This document shows positions 10,446 to 59,120 of a stretch of 64,000 nt of DNA, piece by piece (positions within the stretch are counted from its first letter, which is position 1; the number at the start of each line of letters is the position of its first letter). The notes below the pieces were generated by a model that did not search any database, was not told where the DNA came from, and saw only the letters and a list, made by a program, of their open reading frames with translations. The stretch covers positions 4,245-68,244 of the forward strand of contig DAIDHT010000033.1 of NCBI GenBank assembly GCA_027451945.1, written 5' to 3'. The DNA comes from Spirochaetales bacterium (GTDB lineage: Bacteria > Spirochaetota > Spirochaetia > JABEVK01). The position numbers and the translations under genes are program-made.

Positions 10446-11771
10446 ATGACTCAGCACACTTGGTTTCATAACATCGAGAATGAAGGCGAAGCCCAGATGA
10501 TCCGCAGTGAGCGTCAACGATCCGGGCTCATTTTGGCAGTGCTCACACTCTTTTTGTCGACCAACACCCTACTTCACCTGGCGTTCCCTCATTTCATCAA
10601 CGATCTGTTTTCTCATCGTTTTCCTACCGTACCCTCTTTTTTAGGCTCAGGAATCTTTACCGTTTACGAAATTGCGTTCTACCGTTTTTTGACGCACTGT
10701 TTGAAACAAGGCTACGCTCCTCCGCCCTTTGTCCGCTTTGGTAATGCCCTTTTAGAAACCTCGATTCCTACCATTGCCCTTGCGGTAGCGGCGCGTTCCT
10801 TTGACCCCGCGTCGGCAATGGCTAGCCCTTTTTACGCGCTCTACTTCTTGTTCATTATTCTCTCGGCCCTGAGGATGAACACCATCCTGACAATTTTTAC
10901 CTCGGCCGTCGCCACCATCGAATATTTGGTAGCAGGAGTCTTGCTTCTGCCGCCCCACACCCCCGATTTTGCCTTGATGCTGATGCGCGATGGGCTGTTG
11001 TTGTTGGCAGGGATTCTTTCGGCGTTTGTCAGCGCCCGGGTTCGCGCCAGTGTCTTCGCCGCATGGCGAAGTCTTGAAGACAAGAACCGTGTGATGAATC
11101 TCTTTGGTCAACATGTTTCGCCCGCCGTTGTTCAAAAACTGCTCGACCAACCGCAAGAGTTGCTCAGCGAAAACCTTCCGGTGACCATCCTTTTTCTGGA
11201 TATTCGTAACTTTACTGGCTATGCCGAAAAACGATCGCCCGAAGACGTCGTGAATTATTTGAATCATCTGTTTGATTTCATGATTGACGTCATCAACAGA
11301 AACCACGGCATCGTCAACAAGTTCTTGGGCGACGGCTTTTTAGCGGTCTTTGGCGCCCCCCTTCACGAGGGCAACTCGGCGCAAAATGCTCTCAGAGCGG
11401 CCCTCGAGTTGCGCGAGGAGGTAGCCGAACGCGTAAGGCTTGGCCAAACACCCCCGACTCGAATAGGGATTGGAATTCATTCAGGGCCCGCTGTTACCGG
11501 CACGGTGGGGTCGCTTCAACGCCGCGAGTACACGGTGATCGGAAACGTCGTGAACACTGCCAGCCGTCTTGAAAGTTTAAACAAAGACCTCGGCACCAGC
11601 CTCTTGGTTTCGGATGAGGTGTGGCGTGAAGGCCACTGGGAATCCTTGACTGGGATTGACCGAGGCGAAATCAAAATTCGCGGCAAAGATACCCTCTTAC
11701 GGGTTTGGGAAATCCCAGAACCAGCCCTTCTGGCCGAACTTGACGAAAGTCGAGGCAACCCGGTATATTAA
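10446..11771 (+). CDS. membrane-anchored class III adenylate/guanylate cyclase
   Basis: N-terminal hydrophobic segments followed by a cyclase homology domain (TILFLDIRNFTGYAE, FLGDGFLAVFGAP, IGIGIHSGPAVTGTVG). Confidence 0.85.
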   Translation: MTQHTWFHNIENEGEAQMIRSERQRSGLILAVLTLFLSTNTLLHLAFPHFINDLFSHRFPTVPSFLGSGIFTVYEIAFYRFLTHCLKQGYAPPPFVRFGNALLETSIPTIALAVAARSFDPASAMASPFYALYFLFIILSALRMNTILTIFTSAVATIEYLVAGVLLLPPHTPDFALMLMRDGLLLLAGILSAFVSARVRASVFAAWRSLEDKNRVMNLFGQHVSPAVVQKLLDQPQELLSENLPVTILFLDIRNFTGYAEKRSPEDVVNYLNHLFDFMIDVINRNHGIVNKFLGDGFLAVFGAPLHEGNSAQNALRAALELREEVAERVRLGQTPPTRIGIGIHSGPAVTGTVGSLQRREYTVIGNVVNTASRLESLNKDLGTSLLVSDEVWREGHWESLTGIDRGEIKIRGKDTLLRVWEIPEPALLAELDESRGNPVY

Positions 11772-11777
11772 CGGCAC

Positions 11778-11850
11778 GGACGATTAACTCAGCGGTTAGA
11801 GTGCTACCTTCACACGGTAGAAGTCGGTGGTTCGAATCCACTATCGTCCA
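11778..11850 (+). tRNA. tRNA-Val (anticodon CAC)
   Basis: Manual cloverleaf fold: acceptor stem GGACGAT/ATCGTCC, D stem ACTC/GAGT, anticodon stem CTACC/GGTAG with loop TTCACAC (anticodon CAC), T arm GGTGG-TTCGAAT-CCACT and discriminator A. It starts 6 nt after the cyclase stop codon. Confidence 0.85.
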
Positions 11851-12306
11851 TCTTTCTTGAAACCTCAGGGGCAGAAGACCTGTACTCACTCAAAAAGGCC
11901 CGCTCGTCATCAGCCTCTACTCGCTGGGCGCTGAACTGGTAGCTACCGCTCCCATGCCCCCCGACAGCGGTTTGAGTTTTGACGAAATCGACTTGTAATA
12001 CCATGCTATTGTTGCCCTATCCCGGTCAATTGGAGGTTTCCCTGTAACCGTTCACCGTTGGCGGACGTTATCAACCAGCGTGCGACTCACCGATTTTTCT
12101 CAACTTTCGCCTGACACCTATGTTTTCCAGGTATACTCCGTCCAAAAAAATCCCCTGGGGAGGGTCTTCGGAATGAGCCTCGATTCTTCCAGTTCATTCC
12201 GTTTCGATCAGTCGCGTCTCAGGGCTGTTCGATTACCCCCTTCGATCATTTTGGAGGCTCTTTAACAGTTTGAGGGCTCTGACTCGGTCCGAGCTTCTGC
12301 GTTTTT

Positions 12307-12654
12307 TCACGAACCATAGTAACAAGCTCGGGCCCTAGATCGAGAAAGAATCTTGAAGAGACTTGTGCGTTCCAAGCCGATCGCTTTGTAGGTCACCTTT
12401 TGGGGGTCCCCTACAACGTCAATAGCTTCGAAAGGCCAAAAGGTTTTGATTTCCTCCTCGTCTCCCTGGACGACACCAATCAGGTGGACGTCCTCACGGT
12501 CAAGTTCGGCCTTCAAGGCGGGGAGCAAAAGTTTTGCTTCTTGAAAAAATCGGCACCCAAAGTGCCTAAGCCACACGATGAGCAAATGCTGATGGCCCGC
12601 CAAATGAAACCATTCGTCAAAGACCTCTGTTAGTTTATCGCCTACCCTCAGCAT
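12307..12654 (-). CDS. thioredoxin-fold protein, AhpC/TSA_2 (PRXL2-like) family, short form
   Basis: LIVWLRHFGCRFFQEAKLL resembles the RxFGCxxCR region of peroxiredoxin-like 2 proteins, here as CxxF. The start was set at the ATG at 12654 (MLRVGDKL) because GGGAGG lies 5 nt upstream. The track ORF starts at an upstream GTG. Confidence 0.5.
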   Translation of the reverse strand: MLRVGDKLTEVFDEWFHLAGHQHLLIVWLRHFGCRFFQEAKLLLPALKAELDREDVHLIGVVQGDEEEIKTFWPFEAIDVVGDPQKVTYKAIGLERTSLFKILSRSRARACYYGS

Positions 12655-12959
12655 CACTACCTCCCTGTGTTGGTCACGAGAAAAATCCACCGAGTCCAGA
12701 ATTTATCCGTTAATTGTCCATAGATACCGAAGGGCATTTCATGGAGGCGTTGAAAGTGGGCAGGTTGTAGACCGTCACGGGTTCCCCTTCTCTGGTTATT
12801 CCGCCCAACACCAGCATGACTTTAGAATAATTCCCATTCTAGGCTAAGGGGTGTCAACCGATACGTCAAGTCTCGCTGGGGAGTATTGTCGCAGCCCGAG
12901 TGACCGGTTTCACCCTTGATAAACGCCAGGGAGGGATTTCCAGGAGGTTCAATCCATCA

Positions 12960-12985
12960 CAACCTGTTAAAAAACTAACAGGTTG
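12960..12985. promoter_or_regulatory. 26-bp palindrome CAACCTGT-N10-ACAGGTTG (operator-like site 1)
   Basis: Perfect 8-bp inverted arms read directly from the sequence (caacctgt taaaaaacta acaggttg). Confidence 0.5.
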
Positions 12986-13263
12986 ACTTCGCCGGGCGAA
13001 AAAAATCACAAGTAACACGTGAAACCCCTGGTAACTCGTTTGTTTTTAATTCCTGTCACAATAACGCCAACTTTGAGGTTAAATTCGACACGCTTTGAGT
13101 CACATTGCTGGCATGAAACAGTCACCATCGAAGCCAAATCTCGATTGCTAGAGAATATTTTCTAATCACCATCACGACCGAAGCCTGTCCTGGAGGCAAA
13201 ACTTCGGTGTCTAGGTGAAAAACCTTTCGAGTTTCGCACGTGTGCTCGTTTCCGACAAAATCC

Positions 13264-13289
13264 CAACCTGTGAAATATTTAACAGGTTG
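13264..13289. promoter_or_regulatory. 26-bp palindrome CAACCTGT-N10-ACAGGTTG (operator-like site 2)
   Basis: The identical 8-bp arms recur 304 bp downstream with a different AT-rich N10 spacer (caacctgt gaaatattta acaggttg). It lies about 160 bp upstream of the msrAB start. Confidence 0.5.
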
Positions 13290-13402
13290 AGCCATTTTAA
13301 CACACTGAAAGGACGTCGACACACTCCTTTCGGCTTCAAGGGGGCAACTTAACGTGGTACTTCAGAAGGCGAGACGATTTCCGATTTTTTTACTAAGATT
13401 TA

Positions 13403-13431
13403 TTGACGCCTGAACTCCAGCGGGCTATTTT
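13403..13431 (+). promoter_or_regulatory. candidate sigma70-type promoter for msrAB
   Basis: TTGACG, a 17-nt spacer and TATTTT, followed by GGAGGTG SD and a GTG start at 13450. Confidence 0.35.
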
Positions 13432-13449
13432 TATTACGGAGGTGCGACG

Positions 13450-14649
13450 GTGCGTTATAAGACCTTGACCGTCCTTTTGTTGTTTATGACAGCTTGTACC
13501 CGATCTTCCGCTTCATCCCCAGCTCCTGCCACGTTCCCTGACCCCCCTCCTTCGACGGCTTCACCGGCTTCGCTCGAAACCGCCGTTTTTGCCGGGGGTT
13601 GTTTTTGGGGTGTAGAGGCCGTTTTTGAATCCTTAAAGGGTGTTACCTCGGCAGTTTCGGGGTATGCGGGGGGAACATCCCCTAACCCCACCTACGAGGA
13701 AGTTTGCACAGGAACCACCGGTTACGCCGAGTCGGTTCAAGTGACGTTTGACCCCAAGATTATTTCGTATGGGACGCTACTGAAAATCTTTTTTTCTGTT
13801 GCGCATGACCCTACTGAACTGAATCGCCAGGGCCCTGACGTGGGCACCAATTATCGTTCGGCGATCTTCACCGAATCTGAAGCCCAAGCTCAACAGGCCA
13901 AACAGTACATACAGATTCTTACCGAAAAGAAAGCCTTTCCTAGGCCCATTGTTACGCAAGTTGTTCCGCTGACAAAGTTTTATTCGGCCGAAGCGTATCA
14001 TCAACATTATTTGGAAGAGCACCCCGATTCACCCTATATCGTCCAGTGCGACCTGCCTAAGTTGAGTCGTTTAGTGAGGATGTATCCGGAACTTGTTAAA
14101 CCGGGTTCGCCTGCCGCTACCGATACCCCAACCAAAGTCTGGCATGGTCTAATTGTTCTTCAGCCCGACCAGACCCCCGTTGTTCCCGTGCAACATTCTG
14201 ATACCGACTGGAAGCATTTACTAGGGAACCAAGCCTGGGGAATTTTACGACGTGCTGATACCGAGGCCCCTTTTACGGGCGCTTATTGGAACGAACACCG
14301 CCCTGGCACCTATTACAGCGCCGCCACGGGGGAACCGCTGTTTCGCTCACAGGATAAATTTGATTCCGGCTGCGGGTGGCCCAGCTTTTCAAAACCCATT
14401 ACAAGCCGAGGCATTATCCTCCGCCAGGACAATAGTCATGGGATGAGCCGAATTGAGGTTTTAGATTCGTCTTCGGGTAGTCACCTGGGCCATGTCTTTA
14501 ACGATGGCCCGGACGCTTCAAAGTCTTTTCCCGAAGGAACTGGCCTGAGGTACTGCATTAACTCGGCGGCGATGATCTTTGTTCCCGACGGGGCACCCCT
14601 GCCACCTTTAGTGGCGGCCTGGAAAGCCGCACACCCCACACAGCCGTGA
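13450..14649 (+). CDS. msrAB: fused peptide methionine sulfoxide reductase MsrA-MsrB lipoprotein
   Basis: Signal peptide with lipobox-like MTAC. MsrA active site GGCFWG and MsrB motifs GCGWPSF and RYCINSAA. GTG start behind GGAGGTG. Confidence 0.9.
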   Translation: MRYKTLTVLLLFMTACTRSSASSPAPATFPDPPPSTASPASLETAVFAGGCFWGVEAVFESLKGVTSAVSGYAGGTSPNPTYEEVCTGTTGYAESVQVTFDPKIISYGTLLKIFFSVAHDPTELNRQGPDVGTNYRSAIFTESEAQAQQAKQYIQILTEKKAFPRPIVTQVVPLTKFYSAEAYHQHYLEEHPDSPYIVQCDLPKLSRLVRMYPELVKPGSPAATDTPTKVWHGLIVLQPDQTPVVPVQHSDTDWKHLLGNQAWGILRRADTEAPFTGAYWNEHRPGTYYSAATGEPLFRSQDKFDSGCGWPSFSKPITSRGIILRQDNSHGMSRIEVLDSSSGSHLGHVFNDGPDASKSFPEGTGLRYCINSAAMIFVPDGAPLPPLVAAWKAAHPTQP

Positions 14650-16420: not shown

Positions 16421-17863
16421 ATGGATGCCGAGCGTTTACGCCAAAGCTTGACGGACAACCCTTCATTGCGCCTCTTGCGTAACCCGCATGCGCTCTTTCT
16501 TTTGCTTTTTTTTCGAAAGATGTTCTATGACGACCCCATTCCTATGGTCGAAAGCGATCTCTTAGAGGGGCGGCTGGCCACCTTTTTTGAAGAATGCGGT
16601 CTCGAGGCTGACGAAATTCCGTTAGCCCAGGGCGATCGTCACCGCCGGGCAAAAGTACTCTTAGACCATTGGTGCCGCGACGAAATTCGTTACCTGAGAC
16701 GGTTTGCCGACGAAAATGGCCAGGTCTGGGTTGAAGCGACACCCTGGACGCAACGGGTGTTCCAGTGGATCGAAACCCTCGACGACACTTTAGTGGGAAC
16801 CGAAAGCCGCTTTGATGAAATCCTCCAGCGGTTAGATGACCTAGTTTTGAAGCTTGACCCTGACCCGAAGTCTCGTATTCGGCGTCTCGAAAAAAAGAAA
16901 GCCGCACTGGACTTAGAAATTCAAAAGCTTAAGATCGGCCTTGAGCCCCCGCAGTGGACCGATGTTCAGCTCGAAGAACGAATTAGCGCGCTCAACCGCC
17001 TCTCCCGTGCCCTGCTAGGCGATTTTAAGCAGGTTGAACAAAACTTTCAGACTTTGGTCCGCCGGATCTATGAACAACAGGCCCAAGAAGGTTTTAGTCG
17101 CGGGGACATTCTGGGCTATACCTTGGACGCCGCCGAAGAACTTCGCCAAAGTCCTCAGGGACGTAGCTTTTATGCCTTTTGGGAGCACCTGATTCGTGAA
17201 GGCGAACAGGAGTCGCTTCCTGAGCGCCTGGGCGAACTGTTTGCGTTGCTCGATGCGCAAAATCGCAGCCCTCATGATGAGGTCCTCCGTCACCTGAAAA
17301 CGCATCTGCATTTAGCAGGGCGCAAAGTCATTGCTGGCAACCGGTTGCTCGCCGAAAAGTTAAATAAACTCCTCTCGGAACAAGACTTTCATCACCGTGA
17401 ACGGCTTCGCACGCTTTTAGCCTCGCTAAAAGAAGAGTTTGTCCGTCACAATGCCTCGCCCCCCGCTGACTTTGTTTGGGAGGTTGAGGGCGATGCCGAG
17501 TTAAGTATGATTGCCGACCGCCCGTGGAGCGAACCACCCGAAGGGCGTTTTAAAGACCATCGTCCCCAGCGGGAAACCCAGGCCCTACCCGCCGAAAGCC
17601 GCGCTGTCCTTACGGGTCAGTTTAGTATCGACTTGCTTAAGCTTCGCCGTCGCGTGGCCGAGAGTACCCGCCAAGGCCAAGCCACCTTAGAGGAAATCCT
17701 TTCGCGCTGGCCACCCGAGCAAGGCCTGTCGGAAGTTCTTGCCTACTTAGAAATCGCTTCGTTTTCGCCTTCAGGGCATGTCAATCCTGACGAGACTACC
17801 CTTTTGCCGGTTGATGAGCGCCTCCGGCTTCGATCCCCCCGCGTGGAGTTTGGCCATGTCTGA
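16421..17863 (+). CDS. JetA/MksF-like (DUF3375-type) kleisin-like subunit of an MksBEF/Wadjet-type SMC complex
   Basis: 480-aa helical protein, translationally coupled (ATGTCTGA overlap) to a ~200-aa acidic partner. Size, charge pattern and context match MksF/JetA. The assignment is by architecture, not by a run profile search. Confidence 0.55.
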   Translation: MDAERLRQSLTDNPSLRLLRNPHALFLLLFFRKMFYDDPIPMVESDLLEGRLATFFEECGLEADEIPLAQGDRHRRAKVLLDHWCRDEIRYLRRFADENGQVWVEATPWTQRVFQWIETLDDTLVGTESRFDEILQRLDDLVLKLDPDPKSRIRRLEKKKAALDLEIQKLKIGLEPPQWTDVQLEERISALNRLSRALLGDFKQVEQNFQTLVRRIYEQQAQEGFSRGDILGYTLDAAEELRQSPQGRSFYAFWEHLIREGEQESLPERLGELFALLDAQNRSPHDEVLRHLKTHLHLAGRKVIAGNRLLAEKLNKLLSEQDFHHRERLRTLLASLKEEFVRHNASPPADFVWEVEGDAELSMIADRPWSEPPEGRFKDHRPQRETQALPAESRAVLTGQFSIDLLKLRRRVAESTRQGQATLEEILSRWPPEQGLSEVLAYLEIASFSPSGHVNPDETTLLPVDERLRLRSPRVEFGHV

Positions 17864-18452
17864 TGATCTTGAGTTTACGGTGCTCTCGTATGCACCGGTT
17901 ATTCTAAAACTGCTTCAAGGCCCTCTTTACGACGATGATGCCAAGCTCTGGGCACTCTTGCTGGACAACACAGGGGCCGTCCAAGAGTGGTTTGGCCATA
18001 TCGGGTTGCGACTGATGCTGGTAACCGAAGAGGGACTGGCGTATTTGACTCAGCCTGAGGACGAAGAAGATACCCTGCCTCGGTTGGTGAAACGGGCACC
18101 CTTGGGGTACGATGCCACCGTTTTAGCGGTGATTTTGCGTGACGCCCTCGAGGAGTTTGACCTTACCAATACCGATAGCCGTGACCTCTTTATAACCGCT
18201 CGCGACCTTCAAGCCCGCCTGGCTCCCTATACGGGGGGGCGTTTTGACGAGGCCCGTACTTGGAAGCAGTTTGAACGCTCGCTGGGGCATATGGTTAAGC
18301 TCGGGTTCTTGCGTGAGACGGCTTCGCCCGACCCCGGCGACCAGGGCCGCAAGGTTTATCAAGTTATGCGCATCCTCAAGGTCAAGCTGGGTGGGGCCCA
18401 GCTTGATGACCTCAAGGCTCGGTTAGCGGCTTATCGACCGGGTGGGGCCTGA
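17856..18452 (+). CDS. JetB/MksE-like (DUF4194-type) subunit
   Basis: 199-aa acidic protein (MSDDLEFTVLSYAPVILKLLQGPLYDDD...) starting inside the stop codon of the upstream gene. This is the typical MksE/JetB size and position. Confidence 0.5.
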   Translation: MSDDLEFTVLSYAPVILKLLQGPLYDDDAKLWALLLDNTGAVQEWFGHIGLRLMLVTEEGLAYLTQPEDEEDTLPRLVKRAPLGYDATVLAVILRDALEEFDLTNTDSRDLFITARDLQARLAPYTGGRFDEARTWKQFERSLGHMVKLGFLRETASPDPGDQGRKVYQVMRILKVKLGGAQLDDLKARLAAYRPGGA

Positions 18453-19437: not shown

Positions 19438-19456
19438 TACTTTGCGACACAAAGTA
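19438..19456. promoter_or_regulatory. inverted repeat TACTTTG-CGACA-CAAAGTA with an additional direct TTTACTTT copy, upstream of the wHTH regulator
   Basis: Read directly. It lies 28 bp upstream of the regulator ATG, just before its AAGGAGAG SD. Confidence 0.4.
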
Positions 19457-19483
19457 GCTTTACTTTCTAAAAGGAGAGCTCAG

Positions 19484-19828
19484 ATGCCCGAGAATCCCGC
19501 GCATGCTACCGAGGTGAGAGATCTCTACACCAAGTTTGATGCGGTATTTTTTGAAAAAACTCGGCTGTCGATTATTACCCTGCTTTACCGTGACAAGGAA
19601 ATTTCTTTCAATCAGCTTAAAGAAGCCCTAGGGGCCAGCGACGGCGGTCTCTATGCACACTTAGAAAAGCTTCGTCAGGCCGGGTACGTAGACGGGCAAA
19701 AAGCTATCATTGAGAATTCGATCAGTTCGCAATACTTTCTTACGCTGTTGGGGAAAACCAGGTTTCGCGAGTATGTCGAGTTTTTAGCCTCCGTAGTGAA
19801 TGCTCACACGGAAAAGGAGAGTTCATGA
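19484..19828 (+). CDS. winged-helix transcriptional regulator (ArsR/PadR-like), 114 aa
   Basis: LSIITLLYRDKEISFNQLKEALGASDGGLYAHLEKLRQAGYV is a wHTH pattern. Start at the ATG at 19484 behind AAGGAGAG. The stop overlaps the next gene (ATGA). Confidence 0.65.
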   Translation: MPENPAHATEVRDLYTKFDAVFFEKTRLSIITLLYRDKEISFNQLKEALGASDGGLYAHLEKLRQAGYVDGQKAIIENSISSQYFLTLLGKTRFREYVEFLASVVNAHTEKESS

Positions 19829-25076: not shown

Positions 25077-28000
25077 ATGTCTACTCTCTTTGAAACAGAT
25101 GTTCAAAGCGCTGGCTGGCATCTCAATACTCTCGAGATTTACAACTGGGGCACCTTTCACGACAAGATTTACCGCTTGGTCCCTCGCGGTAAAAACTCCC
25201 TGCTCACGGGGGCCAACGGGTCAGGCAAGACCACCGTGGTCGATGCTTTGGTTACCTTGCTGGTACCGCCGGGAAAACGTCACTACAACCAGTCGTCGGG
25301 GGCGGACAAAAAACGAGAACGCGACGAAACCTCGTATGTTCTGGGCGCGTATGGTACCCTTCGCGACGAAGACAGCACCTCGGGCGAAACGCAATACCTG
25401 CGGGGTAAAGATGATTTTTCGCTCCTTTTGGCCAGCTTTGCCAACGAGAGTTTTCAACAAGAAGCCACGTTAGCCCAACTGCGCTGGTGGTCGGCGGGCT
25501 CCTTGAAACGGCTCTACTTGGTGGCTAACGCCGGGCTTTCCTCCGAAGATTTGCTCCCGTTTGACGGGGGCCCCGCCTGGAAAAAAGCCCTTACAGCTCG
25601 ACATCCCGTGAAATTCTTCGACACCTTTGCCCTCTATGGGCAGACGTTTTCTAGCTTGTTTGGCCTAAAAAGCGACAAAGCCCTCAGTTTGTTTTCGCAT
25701 GTGGTCGGGGTTAAGGTGTTGGGCGACCTGAACGAGTTTATCCGCGACAACATGTTGGATGCGGCGGATATGGAAGAAGACTTCGCCAAACTCAAAAAGA
25801 ACTATGAAGACCTTTTGGGAGCGCATCAGCAGATTGAAAAGGCTAGGGAACAACTGCGTTTATTGGAACCGGCCATGCTGGCCGGCGAGCGCTGGGAAGC
25901 TCTCAGTCAGCAAAAAGCCGAGCAGGATCAAGCTTGGGAGGCTGTTGCCCCCGTTTTTGCGGCCCAAGAAAAACGACTTCTCGCCGAGGCCAAAAACCGT
26001 GAGCAAGTTCGTTTGGCCGCCGTCGAAGCTCAAAAGGACAGTTTGGACCTTCAGCTCGAAGATTTGCGCCGCCAAGAACGCGATTGGGAATTCGCCCTCC
26101 GCGACAAAAGTCAAAGTGGACTTTTGGACACTTTAGAGCGCGACGTAGCCCATCGCCGCGATATCCTGGCCGGAAAAGAGCGGTTAAGACTGGAGTATGA
26201 CGGTTTGGCCAAGGCCTTGGGGTTTGGTCCCGTCCAGGGAGAAACGGGCTTTTGGGAACACCGCGAAGAAGCTGTCCGACAAAAGTCAGCGCTCGAAGAA
26301 CAAGCGGCTCCTGCAAGCTTTGCCTGGGCCGAAGGGCGAAACCGTCTTCTTGCCGCCAGTGAGGAAGCCGAGGCGCTGACTCAAGAGCTAGAAAGTCTTC
26401 GCCATCATTCGGATGCGATTCCTCGCGACCGCAGGCAGTGGCGCGACCGAATGGCGGCCGACCTCGATATGGACCCTGAAAAACTTCCGTTTGCGGCCGC
26501 GTTGGTTCGGGTTCTTGAGCCTCAGTGGAGGCCCGCGGTAGAGCGGCTTTTGGGTGAATTTCTTTTGGCGGTTCTGGTTGACCCCGAACACGAAACTGCC
26601 GTTCGCGCCTGGGTCGGTGACCACCCCGGAAAAATCTTGGTCTTGCGCGACTCGACCGAAGAACAATTTTTTGTCTCGGAAGACAGGGACCAACTCACTG
26701 ACCTTTTAGAGTTTCGTCGCTTGGCACCTTGGGGGGAACGTTTGTCCGCGTGGTTGCGTCGAACCTACGATTTTCAGGCTTGCGAAAGCGATCAACTTTC
26801 GCGCACCCAGCGTGGCTTTACCCAAGACGGCTGGATTCGTGATGGGCGGCTGTGGAGCCGCCCCTCCCCTGGTTGGGACGATCCAGGGCACTTCGTCCTT
26901 GGTTGGGAGAATGAGGTCCAGCGCAAGGCCCTATTTCAGCGCCGAGAAACCGCGCAAACTGAACTGGCCCGCCTTGAGGCCCAACAAAATGCTTTAGAAG
27001 AAAAACGGCGCCAGACTGATAACCGACGGATACTTTTGGAAAAGCTTCTCGATTTTACTGCTTGGAACCAACTGGATACCGAGACCGAAACTGCCGAGCT
27101 TGCCAAGTTAGCGGACCGCAAGAAGGCACTAACCGGCGAAAGCGGCACCGACCAACTACACCAACGCTTAGCGGAGCTCAAAGTTGCCCTCAAAGACAAA
27201 ACTCGTGAAAAAGATGAAACGACCGCTCAGTCAGGACGACTCCGCAAGACCCTTGAAGAGTATGAAATGGAAGAGTCTGCGGCCCAGCGCATTCTGCTTG
27301 ACTTTGCTGGTTTTGATTTAGAAGAGGGCCAACGGCGCCTCGAACCGTGGCTCAAGCAGGTGAACATCTTGCTCGACCTCGGGTCTTTAGTTAAAGTCCG
27401 TGATGAAGTCAGTCGTACCCTGGCTGGCGAACGAAAACGAACCACCGACGACCTTAAACTCGTGGAACGGGAGCTAGAAACAGCCATGCATCGGTACATC
27501 AACCCGGGTGCTGAACTGGCCGCGCGCTTTCCCGAGTGGACAGGCGAAACCGCCTCGCTCATGGCCAAGGCTGACAACTTGAACGAGTTTCGTCAGCGTT
27601 ACGACCGAATTCGGCGTGAAGACCTCCCCGGGTACCAGAAACGGTTTAAGGATTGGCTCAACCAAAGATTGCTTGAAGACATCGCCGACTTTAGAACCTC
27701 GTTAGAAAATCACCTGCGTGCCATTCAAGAAACCGTGCGGGAACTTAACTCGTCTTTAAAAACTATCACCTACAACAGCCTTCCTGCTACCTTTATTCAA
27801 CTTCAGGCCGAAGACAGCCGTGATCTACAAATCCGCGACTTTCGGCGCATGCTCAAAGAGGCTCTAGTAGGTGACAGCGACCTCGAGCAGGCCTTTCATC
27901 GGATTCGCGCCATCATCCAAGCCCTAGCCGACGATGAGCTTTGGCGAAAAAAAGTCACCGATGTGCGCCATTGGCTTCAATTCGCCGCCGTGGAACGCTA

Positions 28001-28403
28001 TGCCGAAGACGGATCTCAACGCCAGTATTACCAGGATAGCCAGAGCTTATCGGGTGGCGAAAAGGCCAAGTTGGCCTACACCATTCTGGCAAGCGCGATC
28101 GCCCATCAATTTGGTATTAGGGGAACAGCGGGGTCGCGTTCCTTGCGTTTTGCCGTGGTGGACGAAGCCTTTAGCAAGGTTGACCCTGAAAACTCAAAAT
28201 TCGCGATGAAACTCTTTGAACAGATGAACCTTCAGTTGATGGTCGTGACCCCTCTGGATAAAATTAATGTGGTAGAAGACTACATTCGCACGATCCACTA
28301 CGTTGAAAACAAAAACCGCAAAACTTCGGCGGTTTATGATCTTTCACTCGAAAAAAGCGAGGATTTTCATGACTTTAGTCCCCTCTCCACCAACGGCCGA
28401 TAA
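25077..28403 (+). CDS. JetC/MksB-like SMC-family ATPase (1108 aa)
   Basis: N-terminal LEIYNWGTFHDKIY...LLTGANGSGKTTVVDALVTLLVPP and the YNQSSGADKKRERDETSYVLGAYG block characteristic of MksB/JetC. A long coiled-coil middle region. C-terminal LSGGEKAKLAYTILASAIA signature and VVDEAFSKVD Walker B. Confidence 0.8.
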   Translation: MSTLFETDVQSAGWHLNTLEIYNWGTFHDKIYRLVPRGKNSLLTGANGSGKTTVVDALVTLLVPPGKRHYNQSSGADKKRERDETSYVLGAYGTLRDEDSTSGETQYLRGKDDFSLLLASFANESFQQEATLAQLRWWSAGSLKRLYLVANAGLSSEDLLPFDGGPAWKKALTARHPVKFFDTFALYGQTFSSLFGLKSDKALSLFSHVVGVKVLGDLNEFIRDNMLDAADMEEDFAKLKKNYEDLLGAHQQIEKAREQLRLLEPAMLAGERWEALSQQKAEQDQAWEAVAPVFAAQEKRLLAEAKNREQVRLAAVEAQKDSLDLQLEDLRRQERDWEFALRDKSQSGLLDTLERDVAHRRDILAGKERLRLEYDGLAKALGFGPVQGETGFWEHREEAVRQKSALEEQAAPASFAWAEGRNRLLAASEEAEALTQELESLRHHSDAIPRDRRQWRDRMAADLDMDPEKLPFAAALVRVLEPQWRPAVERLLGEFLLAVLVDPEHETAVRAWVGDHPGKILVLRDSTEEQFFVSEDRDQLTDLLEFRRLAPWGERLSAWLRRTYDFQACESDQLSRTQRGFTQDGWIRDGRLWSRPSPGWDDPGHFVLGWENEVQRKALFQRRETAQTELARLEAQQNALEEKRRQTDNRRILLEKLLDFTAWNQLDTETETAELAKLADRKKALTGESGTDQLHQRLAELKVALKDKTREKDETTAQSGRLRKTLEEYEMEESAAQRILLDFAGFDLEEGQRRLEPWLKQVNILLDLGSLVKVRDEVSRTLAGERKRTTDDLKLVERELETAMHRYINPGAELAARFPEWTGETASLMAKADNLNEFRQRYDRIRREDLPGYQKRFKDWLNQRLLEDIADFRTSLENHLRAIQETVRELNSSLKTITYNSLPATFIQLQAEDSRDLQIRDFRRMLKEALVGDSDLEQAFHRIRAIIQALADDELWRKKVTDVRHWLQFAAVERYAEDGSQRQYYQDSQSLSGGEKAKLAYTILASAIAHQFGIRGTAGSRSLRFAVVDEAFSKVDPENSKFAMKLFEQMNLQLMVVTPLDKINVVEDYIRTIHYVENKNRKTSAVYDLSLEKSEDFHDFSPLSTNGR

Positions 28404-45973: not shown

Positions 45974-46498
45974 ATGCGCAAAAGCACAGACCTAAACCTG
46001 CAGAAACAAAAGCTGACCGTCCTGTACGAGAGCGAAAGAGGCGCCCTTGTTCGCACCGTCACAGGCCGACTCAGCCAGCGTAAGACCGAGGCCGAGGACA
46101 TAGTCCAAGATGCCTTTGTCAAACTGTGGGAAGCCAACCTCGACCCGATAGAGAATTTGGCAGGCTATGTCTTTACCGCCGTGTCCAATCGGGTTCGCGA
46201 CTGGTTTCGCCGAAAAACTTTGCAACAAGAGGATCTTTCACCAGAATGGGCCGAGCTGATCGCCGATACCCAGAGCGACCAGGTATCAGCCCTAGAAAAC
46301 CAGGAGCGCATGCAGGCCCTTTGGTCGGCAATTGACGATCTGCCGAGTTCGCAAAAAGCAGTTCTCATCGCTACCGAAATCGAAGGCTGGACATTTGAAG
46401 AACTTGCTGATCTTTGGGACGAGCCCTTAGGCACTTTGCTCTCACGCAAACATAGGGCTGTGAAAACTTTGCGCAAAAATCTTAAGCGGCTTTTTTAG
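45974..46498 (+). CDS. RNA polymerase ECF-type sigma-70 factor
   Basis: Region 2 (DIVQDAFVKLWEAN) and region 4 HTH (QKAVLIATEIEGWTFEELADLWDEPLGTLLSRKHRAVKTLRKNL). Confidence 0.8.
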   Translation: MRKSTDLNLQKQKLTVLYESERGALVRTVTGRLSQRKTEAEDIVQDAFVKLWEANLDPIENLAGYVFTAVSNRVRDWFRRKTLQQEDLSPEWAELIADTQSDQVSALENQERMQALWSAIDDLPSSQKAVLIATEIEGWTFEELADLWDEPLGTLLSRKHRAVKTLRKNLKRLF

Positions 46499-48142: not shown

Positions 48143-49258
48143 TTGACACCATTGCACTTTAGTATAAACTTGTTCTTGGTTATGGTAATTCAGCCCCTCG
48201 TTCTTAACCTTCTTATTGTCTTCAACTGCTTGCTCTTTTTGGGTTTTGCCGTCAGCCGCGTACTCGAGCCTCATAAAAAACAAGGTCAGCTGTGGTCGCT
48301 GGCAGCCAACTTTGCGGGGGCGTTTGATTTTGGCCTTTCGGCACTCAACCATCTGCATGTGCTAGGCCCACAGGGACTTGACCCCTCTTTAGGTTTCTTT
48401 CTCGACATGGTTTGTGGCCCACTGTTGTACCTCTATTACCGTGCCTCCACAGACACTCGCTGGGCTTTGCGCTGGTACCACTGGCTTGGTCTTGTCGTTG
48501 TTGGTGTCTTCACGGCGGGGCATGTGTTGTACCGGCTAGGACACCCAGGGCCGCTACCTTTAGAACTGGATTTGCTCCTGGGCTATCTCATTTTTGCTTG
48601 GTTCATCCTCTTTCAGGTACTTTTTTTGGTTAGAACCGTGGTTCAACTGTGGCGAAAAGCCACCCCGGTAACTCGGTTTATGCTGTTTAACCTCTGTTTT
48701 GCTACCGCATGGAGCTTTTATGGACTGGTTGCCATGCTTCTTTTGACCACGCCCTATTACCGAACAATAGTCCTTTTTGGTAGCTTTCTATTTTTAGGAA
48801 TGATTCTTTTTTATCCGCTGAAGGTGGGCAGCACAAAACTCCCTGACCTTTCGCAACAAAAAGAACCTAATCCGGCACCGCTTCTTGGAGTTGATCTTCC
48901 CCGAGTGCTTCAGAAATTAGAAGAAGTCATGCGAGTGAACAAGCTTTTTCGTGACAAAGACCTCACCTTGGCCCGCTTGGCACAAACCATAAGGTTAACA
49001 ACACGGCAATTGTCCGCACTCCTCAATCAGGTCTTGGGGGTGAACTACACGCAATACGTCAACGCCTGGCGATTGGACGAAGCGAAAAACCTCCTGCTCA
49101 CCTCTCCTGAAAAAACCGTCTTAGAAATTGCGTTTTTGTCCGGTTTCGGCTCGAAAACCGCCTTCAATTCGTTTTTTGTCCGTGCCACGGGAATGACACC
49201 TCGTGAGTTTCGCCACGAGGTTCCGTTAGAGCCGGAGCTTACCGAGCTGGCAGAATAG
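48143..49258 (+). CDS. AraC-family transcriptional regulator with N-terminal multi-TM sensor domain
   Basis: C-terminal AraC HTH pair (LARLAQTIRLTTRQLSALLNQVLG ... EIAFLSGFGSKTAFNSFFVRATGMTPREFR) after six hydrophobic segments. Confidence 0.75.
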   Translation: MTPLHFSINLFLVMVIQPLVLNLLIVFNCLLFLGFAVSRVLEPHKKQGQLWSLAANFAGAFDFGLSALNHLHVLGPQGLDPSLGFFLDMVCGPLLYLYYRASTDTRWALRWYHWLGLVVVGVFTAGHVLYRLGHPGPLPLELDLLLGYLIFAWFILFQVLFLVRTVVQLWRKATPVTRFMLFNLCFATAWSFYGLVAMLLLTTPYYRTIVLFGSFLFLGMILFYPLKVGSTKLPDLSQQKEPNPAPLLGVDLPRVLQKLEEVMRVNKLFRDKDLTLARLAQTIRLTTRQLSALLNQVLGVNYTQYVNAWRLDEAKNLLLTSPEKTVLEIAFLSGFGSKTAFNSFFVRATGMTPREFRHEVPLEPELTELAE

Positions 49259-51699: not shown

Positions 51700-52248
51700 C
51701 TAGCAGGCTACCAACGTCAGCTGGTTCTCTAAATCCGCTAAAAGCTTTTCGTAAAAAGCCTCTAGCCCTGCTTTTTGAGCCTCTTCGGCCGTCTGATATT
51801 CTTGAAGAATCACCGACTTTTCAAAATCGGGCAAACCCTCTTCGGCCATGGGGTACAACACATTGTCTTCTTTATAGATGTGCCCGGTGAGGTGCTCTCC
51901 CCAGTCTTGGGCGTAAGCAAGCGCGTTATCGCGGTTTTGAGCCTCGATAGCTTGAAGTAAACCCGCTGTCAAAGCCCGACCTTCTTCGTGGTCAAACAGC
52001 ATAACAGGAATTGGGTTGCAGTGCGTCAGCACCCCTGGTTCCTCTAAATGACGAAAAAGAATGTCTTCTTCTTTGGCGTGGTGATAACGATCGGCATAAG
52101 TTTTAATAAAATCGACAATCTGTCGTAGAGCTGAAAAATGTTGGGCATCGTTGACGCCAGGCTCCCACGTGTTAGCCATTCGTCCTATCAAAGCAATGTA
52201 GCGTAAAAACAGCTGATGCTCTTGCATCAGTTTCTTGGTAACGTCCAT
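51700..52248 (-). CDS. hemerythrin-like (HHE cation-binding) domain protein
   Basis: H..E/H...E pairs (HFSALRQIVDFIKTYADRYHHAKEEDILF ... HEEG ... HIYKEDNVLYP) typical of hemerythrin-like di-iron domains. Confidence 0.7.
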   Translation of the reverse strand: MDVTKKLMQEHQLFLRYIALIGRMANTWEPGVNDAQHFSALRQIVDFIKTYADRYHHAKEEDILFRHLEEPGVLTHCNPIPVMLFDHEEGRALTAGLLQAIEAQNRDNALAYAQDWGEHLTGHIYKEDNVLYPMAEEGLPDFEKSVILQEYQTAEEAQKAGLEAFYEKLLADLENQLTLVAC

Positions 52249-52302
52249 AAGCTCCTCCGTTTCGGTACAAGGTCAGCTTAATGGCCTTTCAAAAGGTTTT
52301 CC

Positions 52303-52316
52303 TTGACCAAGATCAA
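52303..52316. promoter_or_regulatory. FNR-type box TTGAC-CAAG-ATCAA upstream of the hemerythrin gene
   Basis: Read directly. It is centred about 61 bp upstream of the hemerythrin start codon and matches TTGAT-N4-ATCAA at 9 of 10 positions. Confidence 0.45.
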
Positions 52317-52375
52317 GAAAACTCAGGAATTTTTGCGATGTTTTGGGGCACAAAGTCGGTGGACGCAAAAAGGCT

Positions 52376-53020
52376 CTACGTCGCCGCCCCTCGAAGCCGT
52401 GCACACGAAACGACCTGAAGCGTGCTCCCCTCGATCTCAAGGAGATTTTCGTCCTCAAGCTGACGAAATACGCGTGAAAGCGTCTCGGGAGTCATCCCCA
52501 GCTCTTGGGCAATTTCTCGTTTCTTTTTAGGAAAGGGAAAACGACAGTGCGAAAACTTGCCAGGACAGCCGTTGTGAGCAGGACACAAACTAAGAATATA
52601 CTGGACAATTCGTTCGCGAGCCCCAAGAATGGTTAACTGCTCGATCCGTTTGTTGAGTCGTAAACATTTTTTGGCTAAAAGTCTCAAAAAGAAAGCACTT
52701 ACTTCACTGTCACTATTTTTTAAAATTTCATCGCGATGAATCTGTACCAACCGACAGTCTTTGGTAACAACCGCCTGGGCAGGGTACGTGCTTTCGGCAA
52801 ACAACAAAGCCTCGGCACACCAATCACCGGCAGGGATTTTCGTCAGTTCTACTTCATGGCCCGACGCAGACAACAACCGCAACGATAGCTCACCGGCTTC
52901 CACATAAAAGCAATAGGAGGCGGGGTCCTCTTGCAGAAACAAAATCGTTCCTGCCTCAAGTTGACGCCGCCGACCTAACCCAGATAAGGCGACTGGTAAA
53001 GCCGAACCCAAGCTGTCCAT
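52376..53020 (-). CDS. Crp/Fnr-family transcriptional regulator (cNMP-binding type, FNR-like DNA specificity)
   Basis: cNMP-binding beta-barrel followed by the HTH REIAQELGMTPETLSRVFRQL. The E--SR recognition residues match FNR-type rather than CRP-type (RE--GR). No N-terminal Cys cluster. Confidence 0.8.
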   Translation of the reverse strand: MDSLGSALPVALSGLGRRRQLEAGTILFLQEDPASYCFYVEAGELSLRLLSASGHEVELTKIPAGDWCAEALLFAESTYPAQAVVTKDCRLVQIHRDEILKNSDSEVSAFFLRLLAKKCLRLNKRIEQLTILGARERIVQYILSLCPAHNGCPGKFSHCRFPFPKKKREIAQELGMTPETLSRVFRQLEDENLLEIEGSTLQVVSCARLRGAAT

Positions 53021-53042
53021 CGGTTTGTTTTTTTCCTTGACC

Positions 53043-54458
53043 TTACATCACCCGATAGACCAAAAAGTTTTCTTGGTCGGGCGAGACAATGCCATCCCAG
53101 CTTGCCTCGGGAGGGTTCCGTTTAAAAAAGATACAGCGTTCCATGTACCGCGCTGCCACAGGGTCATCCGGATAGGCGTCCAGACTGCGGGTTAGTGACA
53201 AAAGTGCTTTGTCCCACTCGCGGGCTTTGTAAAAGGAAATCCCTGACAACAAGAACGGGTACGCATTGTCTTTACTCTCTACGGTGGCCTTATCGTCGAA
53301 GTCGTACACCTCGTAGATCACCTCGGGAGTCTCGCGTCCTTTAACCCGAATCGAGTCGACTTCACGAATCTTGTACTGACCTGGGTCGGCTAAAGCATGA
53401 AAGGTCGACTGACTAATCAAGATTCGGGTATGATAAAGCTTAGTGAGAGTCTCAACACGTTTAGCGACAGATACCGGGTTACCAATACTGGTCGAGTCCA
53501 TGCGCGATACAGACCCTACGGTGCCGATGACGACATTGCCGCTCGAGATACCCATCCCTACTAAAATCTCTTTTTGACCGCCGAAGCGTCGGGTTTCATT
53601 GAAACGAATCAGGTGTCGTTGAATGTCCAGGGCAGCCTGCACCGCATCATCAGCGTGCTTATGATCAAAAATCGCCATAAACCCATCGCCCAGGTACTTA
53701 TCGATGGCTCCATTATGAGCTTGAATGATGTCGTTCATCTCGGCCAAGTAATCATTCAAGAACCCCGTAATCTCGTTTGGCTCCAACCCTTCGGCTAACG
53801 TGGTAAACGACCGGATATCGAGAAAAAGCACACTAGCTTCGCAGGTTTCGGCTTCGCCCAACCGGATTCTTTCGATGCCTTCCCGCGTGATACGTTTGAG
53901 GTACTTTGGGGGGACAAACAGCTCAAAGGCCTTCATCGTGCGGTGTAGCTTTTCGTAGGCTAAAGCGTTTTCGATGCTGATCGCCATTAGTGAGCTGAAC
54001 GCTTCTAACTCATCGACATCATTGGCGGTAAACTCGCCGCCTCCGACCTTATTCAAAACCTGGACCACCCCGATGATGTTGCCATCTTTGTTTCGAATTG
54101 GCATGGTCAGCAAAGCCTGGGTACGAAACCCTGTCTGCTGGTCAATCTCGCGATTAAACCGGGGGTCGGCATAGGCATCGACGATATTCACAGTTTCGCC
54201 GGTCCGAGCCGCATACCCGGCCAAGCCTCGGTCCACAGCAAAACGGATCTCTTGAATTCCTGAACCCGAAAAAACCTTCGAGTATAGTTGCCCCCGTTCT
54301 GCATCAATAAGGAACAAGGTGCTCCGCTGTGCCCCAACGACCGAGCAAGTTTCGGCGATAAGAGTTTGAAGAAGGGAGGTAAGATCAAGCTCAGTCATAA
54401 TGCGCTTGGTCGCCTCAATCAACTTTTGATGACGTTTGGAATGGGAAATCTCTGACAC
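53043..54458 (-). CDS. GAF domain-containing class III adenylate/guanylate cyclase with C-terminal TPR-like region
   Basis: N-terminal GAF (DAYADPRFNREIDQQTGFRTQALLTMPI), cyclase domain (ASVLFLDIRSFTTLAE, YLGDGFMAIFD, GMGISSGNVVIGTVGS) and a C-terminal helical repeat. Confidence 0.85.
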   Translation of the reverse strand: MSEISHSKRHQKLIEATKRIMTELDLTSLLQTLIAETCSVVGAQRSTLFLIDAERGQLYSKVFSGSGIQEIRFAVDRGLAGYAARTGETVNIVDAYADPRFNREIDQQTGFRTQALLTMPIRNKDGNIIGVVQVLNKVGGGEFTANDVDELEAFSSLMAISIENALAYEKLHRTMKAFELFVPPKYLKRITREGIERIRLGEAETCEASVLFLDIRSFTTLAEGLEPNEITGFLNDYLAEMNDIIQAHNGAIDKYLGDGFMAIFDHKHADDAVQAALDIQRHLIRFNETRRFGGQKEILVGMGISSGNVVIGTVGSVSRMDSTSIGNPVSVAKRVETLTKLYHTRILISQSTFHALADPGQYKIREVDSIRVKGRETPEVIYEVYDFDDKATVESKDNAYPFLLSGISFYKAREWDKALLSLTRSLDAYPDDPVAARYMERCIFFKRNPPEASWDGIVSPDQENFLVYRVM

Positions 54459-58443: not shown

Positions 58444-59120
58444 TCTTCTTTAAGCATATAACCAGAGCCGCGCACCGTATGGATGAGCTGGGGGGTGTAC
58501 CCATAGTCCACTTTTTTACGAAGGCGATTAATGTGAACATCAATCACATTGGTGGTTGTATCAAAATGGATATCCCAGACCCGTTCGCTAATTTCGAGCC
58601 GGGACAAGACTTCTCCCTGGTGCTCCATAAGAAACTGAAGCAGAGCCATCTCTTTTAACGAAAGTTCAATTAGCCGCCCCCCCCGTTCCACTCGCCTCGA
58701 GCGCGTATCCAAGACCAAATCGGCGATATGAAGAACCGTTTGGGATCTTTGGCGGGACTTTCGGAGGTGGGAACGCACACGCGCCAAAAATTCTTCAAAT
58801 TCAAAGGGTTTAGTGACGTAGTCGTCCGCGCCAATGTCCAGACCACGAACCTTGTCCTCCACGCCATCGCGAGCCGTCAGCATCACTACAGGCAAGAACA
58901 ACCCCTTGTCGCGTACGGTGCGGCAAACCTCAAGACCATCCATCTCGGGTAGGGTCAGATCCAGCACCATCAAGTCAAACGGCTCGGCAAGAGCACGCCG
59001 AAGTCCTTGCGCCCCATCCGAGGCAACCTCAACCGTATATCCTTCTTCTCTGAGACCCTTTTGAATAAAATTGGCAATCTTTGCCTCGTCTTCGACAACG
59101 AGGATCCGTCCTTCTGACAT
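58440..59120 (-). CDS. OmpR-family response regulator
   Basis: Receiver domain (ILVVEDE...DLMVLDLTLPEMDG) plus a winged-helix trans_reg_C (VHINRLRKKVD...IHTVRGSGYML). ATGA overlap with the kinase gene. Confidence 0.9.
   Translation of the reverse strand: MSEGRILVVEDEAKIANFIQKGLREEGYTVEVASDGAQGLRRALAEPFDLMVLDLTLPEMDGLEVCRTVRDKGLFLPVVMLTARDGVEDKVRGLDIGADDYVTKPFEFEEFLARVRSHLRKSRQRSQTVLHIADLVLDTRSRRVERGGRLIELSLKEMALLQFLMEHQGEVLSRLEISERVWDIHFDTTTNVIDVHINRLRKKVDYGYTPQLIHTVRGSGYMLKEE

Follow-up and report, generated by a model that had tools for sequence, protein, structure and literature searches.

Twin 26-bp palindromes in a strain-variable islet upstream of msrAB in a Spirochaetales genome: a possible operator pair

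The msrAB upstream region and its twin palindromes

We analyzed a 64-kb stretch of Spirochaetales DNA (hereafter the window) in which two palindromes with the same arms lie between a tRNA-Val gene and msrAB. The msrAB gene (13450-14649, plus strand) encodes a fusion of MsrA and MsrB that has a signal peptide of the lipoprotein type and matches Pfam PMSR and SelR. The protein was 100% identical to cluster P0001, one member of which is annotated as coming from a Spirochaetales metagenome-assembled genome (MAG), and its next relatives were only 60% identical. The msrAB promoter TTGACG-17-TATTTT (13403-13431, plus strand), put forward as a candidate in a preliminary description of this DNA, was reported by our promoter scan, and its architecture was identical in the contigs L001, L003, L005 and L136; the ribosome-binding region was also common to all lineages. 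The tRNA-Val gene (CAC; 11778-11850, plus strand) forms the left border of a strain-variable islet (11852-13376, unstranded), which extends to the msrAB promoter and contains both palindromes.

The sequence CAACCTGT-N10-ACAGGTTG was found exactly at 12960-12985 (site 1) and 13264-13289 (site 2), with the two starts 304 bp apart, as the preliminary description had reported. The two 26-mers, neither of which carries a strand, had identical 8+8 arms and were the sole matches in the 64 kb even when three mismatches were allowed. Site 1 (CAACCTGTTA-AAAAAC-TAACAGGTTG) was a perfect 10+10 palindrome with a 6-nt centre, and site 2, composed of the halves CAACCTGTGAAAT and ATTTAACAGGTTG, was a 13+13 palindrome with one mismatch. 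The repeat unit common to both sites was 31 nt long (ATCNCAACCTGT...TAACAGGTTGA). We used 3000 dinucleotide-preserving shuffles of positions 12655-13449 as a null model; 16% of the shuffles held some 8+8 palindrome, and none held two palindromes sharing one arm. These results indicated that the twin palindromes are real and non-random.

The arms did not correspond to the familiar boxes with which they had been compared before, and the earlier statement that they match no SOS, Rex or CRP site was upheld. The arm sequence CAACCTGT did not match the CRP (TGTGA-N6-TCACA) or the Rex (TTGTGAA-N4-TTCACAA) box. The spacing of the E. coli type LexA box (CTGT-N8-ACAG) was not found either; it was N10 at both sites in all haplotypes. 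Half-sites of the TCAC type were present near the palindromes, outside them, as same-strand repeats.

On the minus strand, the islet carries the remains of an operon. The gene at 12307-12654 encodes a truncated AhpC-TSA_2 protein of 115 amino acids (Pfam PF13911, 28.4 bits) and is a probable pseudogene, compared with 193-205 amino acids in relatives. The preliminary description had regarded this gene as peroxiredoxin-like and as co-regulated with msrAB; it is a C-terminally deleted remnant. The interval 12657-12817 on the same strand is a remnant of the upstream open reading frames (ORFs) of the operon. In L136 the operon was intact and consisted, on the minus strand, of a 152-amino-acid DUF1772/Anthrone_oxy gene, a gene for a 101-amino-acid protein (for which no Pfam match was found) and the AhpC-TSA_2 gene, which runs off the contig end. 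In L005 a deletion fused the first two genes into a 77-amino-acid ORF, and the AhpC-TSA_2 protein was 193 amino acids long (205 as called in P0130). Relative to L005, the window showed two further deletions, one of 75 bp in the fusion ORF and one of ~170 bp in the part encoding the C-terminal half of AhpC-TSA_2. The operon (12307-12817 in the window) thus decays stepwise from L136 through L005 to the window. The 760-bp non-coding region described earlier therefore stands only in part; ~160 bp of it (12657-12817) is decayed ORF, and the actual intergenic DNA measures 589-633 bp in the intact relatives. Distant AhpC-TSA_2 homologues (55% identical) were found on the contig of another organism, with a Por_Secre_tail neighbour, in another gene context and with no palindrome.

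Both sites are placed between two divergent promoters, that of msrAB and a candidate promoter of the minus-strand operon. The latter, TTGACG-17-TAGCCT (12841-12869, minus strand), was read from the sequence; its L136 equivalent was TTGACG-17-TAGGCT, and its -10 hexamer is too weak for the consensus scan to report. Site 2 had been placed just upstream of the msrAB promoter, but it ends 113 bp 5' of the -35 hexamer (13403), and in the window and L136 alike its centre precedes the probable start of msrAB by ~160 bp. Site 1 begins 7 nt from the minus-strand -35 hexamer in L136 and 83 bp farther away in the window and L005. Because of this 83-bp indel, the distance from site 1 to the candidate minus-strand start differs between haplotypes (~55 bp in L136 and ~140 bp in the window).

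The inter-site segment (12986-13263, unstranded) is 278 bp long, and its length is conserved. We considered whether it encodes a protein or an RNA. A 99-amino-acid ORF present in L136 was rejected, as it contains an in-frame stop in the window and as the inter-site substitutions were distributed over the three codon phases as 13/20/21, which is no coding signature. For a 57-amino-acid ORF on the minus strand, the fewest changes fell at its third positions, and it was rejected as well; neither candidate ORF was conserved. No Rfam match above noise was found in the region (one miRNA match, E = 0.99). RNAalifold of the alignment gave covariation terms of +2.35 and -0.53 kcal/mol for the two strands, with ~20 broken pairs against 3-6 compensated ones. 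A structured RNA was thus rejected. A repetitive extragenic palindromic (REP) element or a miniature inverted-repeat transposable element (MITE) would be expected in many copies per genome, with conserved ends and target-site duplications; in the window, L001 and L003, neither the palindrome nor the interior recurred, and no duplications flanked the sites. An integron attC site, a REP element and a tandem MITE junction were rejected because of size, copy number in the sequence searched and the lack of matching flanks. Taken together, the sequence searched gave no sign of the structured RNA or scattered repeat family that the preliminary description had named as a possible refutation.

The inter-site segment does contain short conserved elements. 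A 70-nt core module, TCACAA..CGCCAACTTTGAGG..CGCTTTGAGTC (13056-13125, plus strand), was also found upstream of msrAB in L001 (9813-9882), which lacks the islet. Its local alignment score against L001 was 32, compared with 20.0 +/- 2.3 for shuffles, and it was the sole part of the region that L001 shares. The module holds a CTTTGAG direct repeat with 22-nt spacing, which is also present in L136. A pair of direct repeats, TCACCATCGAAGCC and TCACGACCGAAGCC (13122-13185, plus strand), lies 50 bp apart, and the same pair was found with the same spacing in L136. Positions 13166-13189 were invariant between the window and L136. The top enriched plus-strand 4-mer was TCAC, with 7 occurrences observed against 1.3 expected (uncorrected p = 4.6e-4), and L136 has 8. 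These elements may be sites for other factors acting on msrAB.

Conservation of the sites across islet haplotypes

Orthologous upstream regions were taken from contigs encoding members of the msrAB protein cluster. Among related Spirochaetales assemblies, we distinguished three islet haplotypes, namely that of the window (also L139 and L137), that of L005 (also L140, L138 and L141) and that of L136 (also L135). In L001 (GCA_013044245.1), the homology to the window ended at 11851 and restarted at 13377, just before the msrAB promoter; the islet interval measured 1525 bp in the window and 196 bp in L001. In a more distant lineage (L003, L006 and L160), a VapBC pair and an 81-amino-acid ORF were found at the islet position. 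The CAACCTGT palindromes were confined to islet-carrying contigs. Since the msrAB promoter was kept in siblings without the palindromes, the sites travel with the 1.5-kb accessory islet and not with msrAB. No similarity of the islet to plasmid or phage records was found.

The whole stretch from the tRNA-Val gene, or from the upstream gene, to the msrAB promoter (11852-13376 in the window, 9732-9927 in L001 and 3815-4480 in L003) differed completely in content among the sibling lineages. Repeated palindromes of their own were found at comparable positions in L001 (TTTGTGATT/AATCACAAA) and in L003, L006 and L160 (AATTATCGCGATAATT).

Both palindromes were kept in all three diverged islet haplotypes. 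Between the window and L136, only 1 of the 32 arm positions had changed, whereas changes were found at 6 of the 20 spacer positions (Fisher p = 0.0099 against the arms) and at 54 of the 278 inter-site positions (binomial p = 0.009 against the arms). The 8-nt arms of site 1 were invariant in the three haplotypes. The single arm change (A to G) was located in site 2 of L136 (CGACCTGTTAAATCCTTAACAGGTTG), in which the inner mismatch of the window copy was repaired. The half-site consensus obtained from 10 aligned arms was CAACCTGT(T/G)AAA(T). The block GAGCCATTTTAACACA, which follows site 2, was invariant across all haplotypes. Variation in the region was highest in the 70 bp from there to the msrAB promoter (13305-13376), where the window and L005, otherwise 98% identical, showed 16 differences in 68 nt. 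The footprinting of orthologous regions that had been proposed earlier thus found both sites conserved, on three haplotypes, with arms better kept than spacers and surroundings. This is the general pattern of an operator, namely a dyad whose half-sites are conserved above the spacer and the surrounding DNA. In addition, site 1 of L136 equalled the reverse complement of site 2 of the window at 28 of 29 positions, as would be expected if a symmetric protein reads double-stranded DNA.

The distance between the two sites was also conserved. The start-to-start spacing was 304, 305 and 304 bp in the three haplotypes; with 10.5 bp per turn, this amounts to 28.95-29.05 turns. No indel accompanied the 54 inter-site substitutions that distinguish the window from L136, and an 83-bp indel was found immediately to the left of site 1. 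A separation of 304-305 bp, or ~29 helical turns, would place the two sites on the same side of the DNA, and cooperative binding is the mechanism that we favour.

The operator-pair reading and the search for a regulator

Based on these results, we suggest that the twin palindromes are an operator pair for one symmetric DNA-binding protein, located within the control region of an antioxidant-type accessory islet; the two operators would probably cooperate over the fixed distance of 29 turns. We give this reading a probability of roughly 0.45. The palindromes would belong to the control region of an islet that was inserted between tRNA-Val and msrAB and that carries the divergent operon of DUF1772/Anthrone_oxy, 101-amino-acid and AhpC-TSA_2 genes. 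A symmetric dimeric protein, encoded elsewhere in the genome and presumably answering to a physiological signal, would bind both palindromes. A dimer on each site could then be bridged cooperatively to the other, which would create a loop around the 278-bp segment and the conserved short repeats within it. Looping of this kind, which the spacing suggests, could modulate the minus-strand islet promoter and perhaps the transcription entering msrAB. As neither site occupies a fixed promoter-proximal position, simple steric repression and class I activation are argued against; what is left is action at a distance, to which the conserved in-phase spacing would be suited. The preliminary description had proposed a dimeric factor that co-regulates a small redox regulon. 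Its first half is plausible, since the arms are conserved, the spacers drift and the spacing is fixed. A conserved regulon centred on msrAB is unsupported, because the siblings keep the msrAB promoter without the sites and the partner gene in the window is a pseudogene.

Several results weigh against the operator-pair reading. The distance from the sites to the promoters was neither close nor constant, given the ~160 bp from site 2 to the msrAB start and the 83-bp shift of site 1. In L001 and L002 and in L003, L006 and L160, the same msrAB promoter was present with no CAACCTGT palindrome, and an unchanged promoter in strains without the sites makes an essential role of the sites for msrAB unlikely. 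The third-codon identity between the window and L136 was 77% for AhpC-TSA_2 and 58% for msrAB. An islet younger than its surroundings, sampled in only three haplotypes, limits the power of the conservation tests. Between the window and L005, the intergenic DNA was 7.3% diverged, compared with 4.2% at the msrAB third-codon positions, and was thus conserved no more strongly than synonymous sites. Constraint could also be mimicked by gene conversion between the palindrome copies. No regulator or recombinase gene was found in the islet or adjoining it, and the transcription factors encoded in the window (of the HTH_34, extracytoplasmic function (ECF) sigma, AraC, CRP-family and OmpR types) show no linkage to the sites. 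With a profile of every known copy, no other match was found at E <= 10 in 117 kb (the window, L001, L003, L135 and L142), and no further genomic occurrence was found in the ~2% of the genome that was covered. Finally, a scan of public genome contigs with a 16-base pattern gave at least 118 unrelated loci, and no spirochaete was among the matches listed.

The regulators in the window are an HTH_34 winged-helix protein (19487-19828), an ECF sigma factor (45974-46498), an AraC-type protein (48143-49258), a CRP-family protein (52376-53020) and an OmpR-type response regulator (58440-59120). The earlier observation that the DNA between the two sites encodes no regulator was confirmed. No regulator of msrAB or of the DUF1772/AhpC-TSA_2 genes in this lineage was identified in the sequence analyzed. 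The HTH_34 protein was considered as the binder and rejected, as a different palindrome is associated with its gene, and as the distribution of the gene (found in L003, missing from L001) does not follow that of the sites. This 113-amino-acid HTH_34/ArsR-like gene (region 19438-19828) is preceded by the palindrome TACTTTG-N5-CAAAGTA. It lies within a further arrangement in the window, where Wadjet/Mks-like condensin genes are apparently split (16421-18452 and 25077-28403), with DUF3375 (JetA-like) and MksE/JetB genes located ~6.6 kb from the gene of a 1108-amino-acid SMC/SbcC-type ATPase. Between the two parts, genes for DUF6941, DinB and the HTH_34 regulator and a TP_0789-like/MacB-type ABC transporter cluster were found. 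The gene order from DUF3375 to the ABC transporter also occurs in L001 and L003, and both loci end before the position of the ATPase. The CRP-family gene belongs to a cluster at 51700-54458 that also contains genes for a hemerythrin and a GAF-domain adenylate/guanylate cyclase; this composition suggests an oxygen- or redox-linked cyclic-nucleotide circuit. A second cyclase gene (10446-11771) is found directly upstream of the tRNA-Val gene and the islet.

Outside the spirochaetes, the arms were found in several unrelated settings. In eight species of Burkholderia, Paraburkholderia and Caballeronia, among the matches listed, a 26-bp palindrome CAACCTGTACGT-NN-ACGTACAGGTTG was found, which can also be written CAACCTGTACG(T/C)-NN-ACGTACAGGTTG (L025 at 5884, L029 at 7233, L057 at 4341, L062 at 5470, L063 at 746, L071 at 4339, L093 at 1858 and L119 at 4715). 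It ends 3 nt upstream of a TATAAT-like hexamer in most of the eight species. In L025 and L063, the two loci examined for genes, it stands directly before a MerR-family/MFS operon, downstream of rho, and it is likely a MerR-type operator. This palindrome shows that the 26-bp geometry is used at an operator-typical position, and it is not evidence of homology. At several Clostridium loci, the same stem served as an intrinsic terminator at orthologous gene ends and was followed by T-runs. The Myxococcota MAG CAXXHC01 (L011, L016, L042, L068 and L100) carried at least five copies of CAACCTGTACG-N4-CGTACAGGTTG with conserved flanks of at least 30 nt, which form a dispersed palindromic repeat family, and a Planctomycetota MAG (L046, 2505-2582) carried a tandem array with a 27-bp period and the unit TCAACCTGTCCCGAGTAGCACAGGTTG. 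Viral contigs gave ten single matches, which equals the chance expectation. In metagenomes of the Joint Genome Institute, a stricter pattern gave 13 unrelated matches, mostly long perfect hairpins; judging by the protein sources, the genus is absent from that collection. A literature search on the arms returned only mariner primer sequences and KstR sites.

Alternative explanations and known systems

Among the alternatives, we considered it unlikely, but worth the most weight, that the palindromes are relics or neutral duplicates without a present function. They could be what an old insertion or rearrangement left behind, such as its ends, at a recombination-prone spot beside a tRNA gene, and their apparent conservation would then reflect the youth of the islet and gene conversion between the copies. 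In favour of this, the islet varies between strains and is decaying, with deletions in both genes of the window and the 83-bp indel beside site 1; it is also less diverged than the core genes, is represented by three haplotypes only, and its intergenic DNA evolves at least as fast as the third-codon positions of msrAB in the comparison with L005. Moreover, TA followed by ACAGGTTG resembles the start of a mariner-type inverted terminal repeat, a lead drawn from published primer sequences and the Himar1 element. We take this likeness to the Himar1/mariner terminal repeat to be a lead and not a test. Against a relic, the arms were significantly better conserved than their own spacers and the inter-site DNA, the spacing remained free of indels across 54 substitutions, and no second copy of the element or its interior was found in 117 kb. 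No target-site duplications or matching flanks were found beyond the 31-nt repeat, and the 64-kb window contained no transposase or recombinase gene. The palindromes might instead act as RNA hairpins in intergenic transcripts, serving as weak terminators, attenuators or stabilising stem-loops that, for instance, insulate msrAB from upstream transcription. Each site can fold into a hairpin of 8-12 bp (DNA folding energies of -6.6 to -8.8 kcal/mol and z-scores between -4 and -5), the A to G change in the L136 arm retains a G-U pair on the plus strand, short T-runs follow site 2 on both strands, and identical stems are the Clostridium terminators described above. However, the terminator scan reported neither site, the T-runs were only 4 nt long, compared with the at least five T that follow the GC-rich stem of an intrinsic terminator, and no promoter was predicted upstream of the sites in either orientation. 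The lack of an Rfam match and of net covariation, with ~20 broken pairs in the alignment folds, also speaks against hairpins. In addition, the arm sequence itself was conserved and not just its pairing, as the near identity of L136 site 1 with the reverse complement of window site 2 illustrates, and this points to the recognition of double-stranded DNA. Overall, we regarded the hairpin explanation as improbable.

Two further explanations, which we considered more improbable still, assign the palindromes to a specific class of protein. According to one of them, site 2 alone would be a MerR-type operator that overlaps a second, stress-inducible upstream promoter of msrAB, with a -10-like hexamer CATTTT (13293-13298) located 3 nt past the palindrome, and site 1 would be auxiliary or vestigial. 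MerR-type operators sit between the -35 and -10 hexamers of promoters with a 19-20-bp spacer, usually beside a merR-like gene. In favour of this explanation are the 25-nt block TAACAGGTTGAGCCATTTTAACACA, which was invariant in all haplotypes, and the eight Burkholderiaceae species, in most of which a TATAAT-like hexamer comes 3 nt after the same 26-bp geometry, in front of a MerR-family gene at the two loci examined for genes. Yet the putative -35 hexamer in the left arm matched TTGACA at only 3 of 6 positions, the -10 hexamer lacked its first T, the promoter scan was silent, site 1 had no such hexamer on either strand, and no MerR-family gene was found in the window. The Burkholderia resemblance is also partly built in, because it was found by searching with the same arms. 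The least probable explanation, in our estimate, is that a site-specific recombinase binds the palindromes or crosses over at them, as at the hix sites of Hin/Gin or at resolvase site I; the 278 bp between them would then be a switch, open to inversion or excision, that separates the divergent operons. The size of the palindromes, their GC-containing outer arms and their AT-rich centre would agree with such sites, as would the conserved spacing and the placement of two copies around ~300 bp of intergenic DNA with divergent genes on either side, an arrangement also known from invertible promoters such as the fimS switch. But the central dinucleotides differed between the two sites in every haplotype (AA versus TA, TG or TC), which would block productive strand exchange, and the segment had the same orientation in 7 of 7 independent assemblies. 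Neither a recombinase gene in the 64-kb window nor a conserved promoter inside the segment was predicted.

The operator-pair reading can be extended to a broader proposal, which we consider doubtful. The stretch between tRNA-Val and msrAB would be a hot spot at which sibling spirochaetes swap regulatory cassettes, each with its own palindromes (CAACCTGT..ACAGGTTG, TTTGTGATT/AATCACAAA and AATTATCGCGATAATT), and the twin palindromes of the window would be a phased looping operator pair for an uncharacterised regulator that couples the accessory antioxidant operon to methionine sulfoxide repair. Independently of this proposal, the palindromes are an orphan operator-like motif, a new example of a familiar kind of element and not surprising in kind. 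If they are confirmed as operators, they would give access to gene regulation in a lineage of uncultured Spirochaetales and offer a clean case in which a regulatory module and a small accessory islet beside a tRNA gene move together.

We compared the twin palindromes with known systems. The LexA SOS box shares the CTGT...ACAG motif with them and differs in its N8 spacing, compared with N10 here. The operators of KstR-type TetR regulators have the sequence TnnAACnnGTTnnA (PMC1995591). Each spirochaete arm holds AACCTGTT with the AAC-NN-GTT core of these operators, a likeness that is a lead and not a test. The outer T and A positions of the KstR operators are not kept in the spirochaete arms, and arm position 9 is variable (T/G), so that 2 of the 8 arms of the window and L136 have a disrupted mini-palindrome. 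The Burkholderiaceae MerR/MFS site has identical outer arms and the same 8-10-8 geometry. It differs in its inner half-site (TACGT, compared with TAAAT in the spirochaete) and in its position 3 nt from TATAAT and beside a regulator gene, whereas the spirochaete sites lie outside a core promoter, with no MerR gene nearby.

The hix sites and resolvase site I are 26-bp palindromes with GC-containing outer arms and an AT-rich centre. Switches built on them resemble the present arrangement in palindrome size, in the AT-rich centre and in the flanking of ~300 bp between divergent genes; the mismatched core dinucleotides, the single orientation in seven assemblies and the lack of a nearby recombinase set the spirochaete pair apart. 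ArsR/SmtB-family repressors bind 12-2-12 (26-bp) imperfect inverted repeats. The spirochaete sites resemble these in size, in their 12-2-12 or 13+13 layout and in the presence of two copies in a divergent control region. Their sequence does not resemble the boxes described for that family, and no neighbouring gene is of the ArsR type; within the window, a winged-helix HTH_34/ArsR-like protein is encoded only at 19487-19828, behind the different palindrome given above. Finally, the lac O1/O2/O3, gal OE/OI and deo operators offer a likeness in architecture, as paired palindromes in a promoter region whose separation is free of indels and spans a nearly integral number of turns (~29.0 here). In the spirochaete, neither site overlaps a recognisable core promoter, and it is the spacing alone that suggests a loop of the lac, gal or deo kind.

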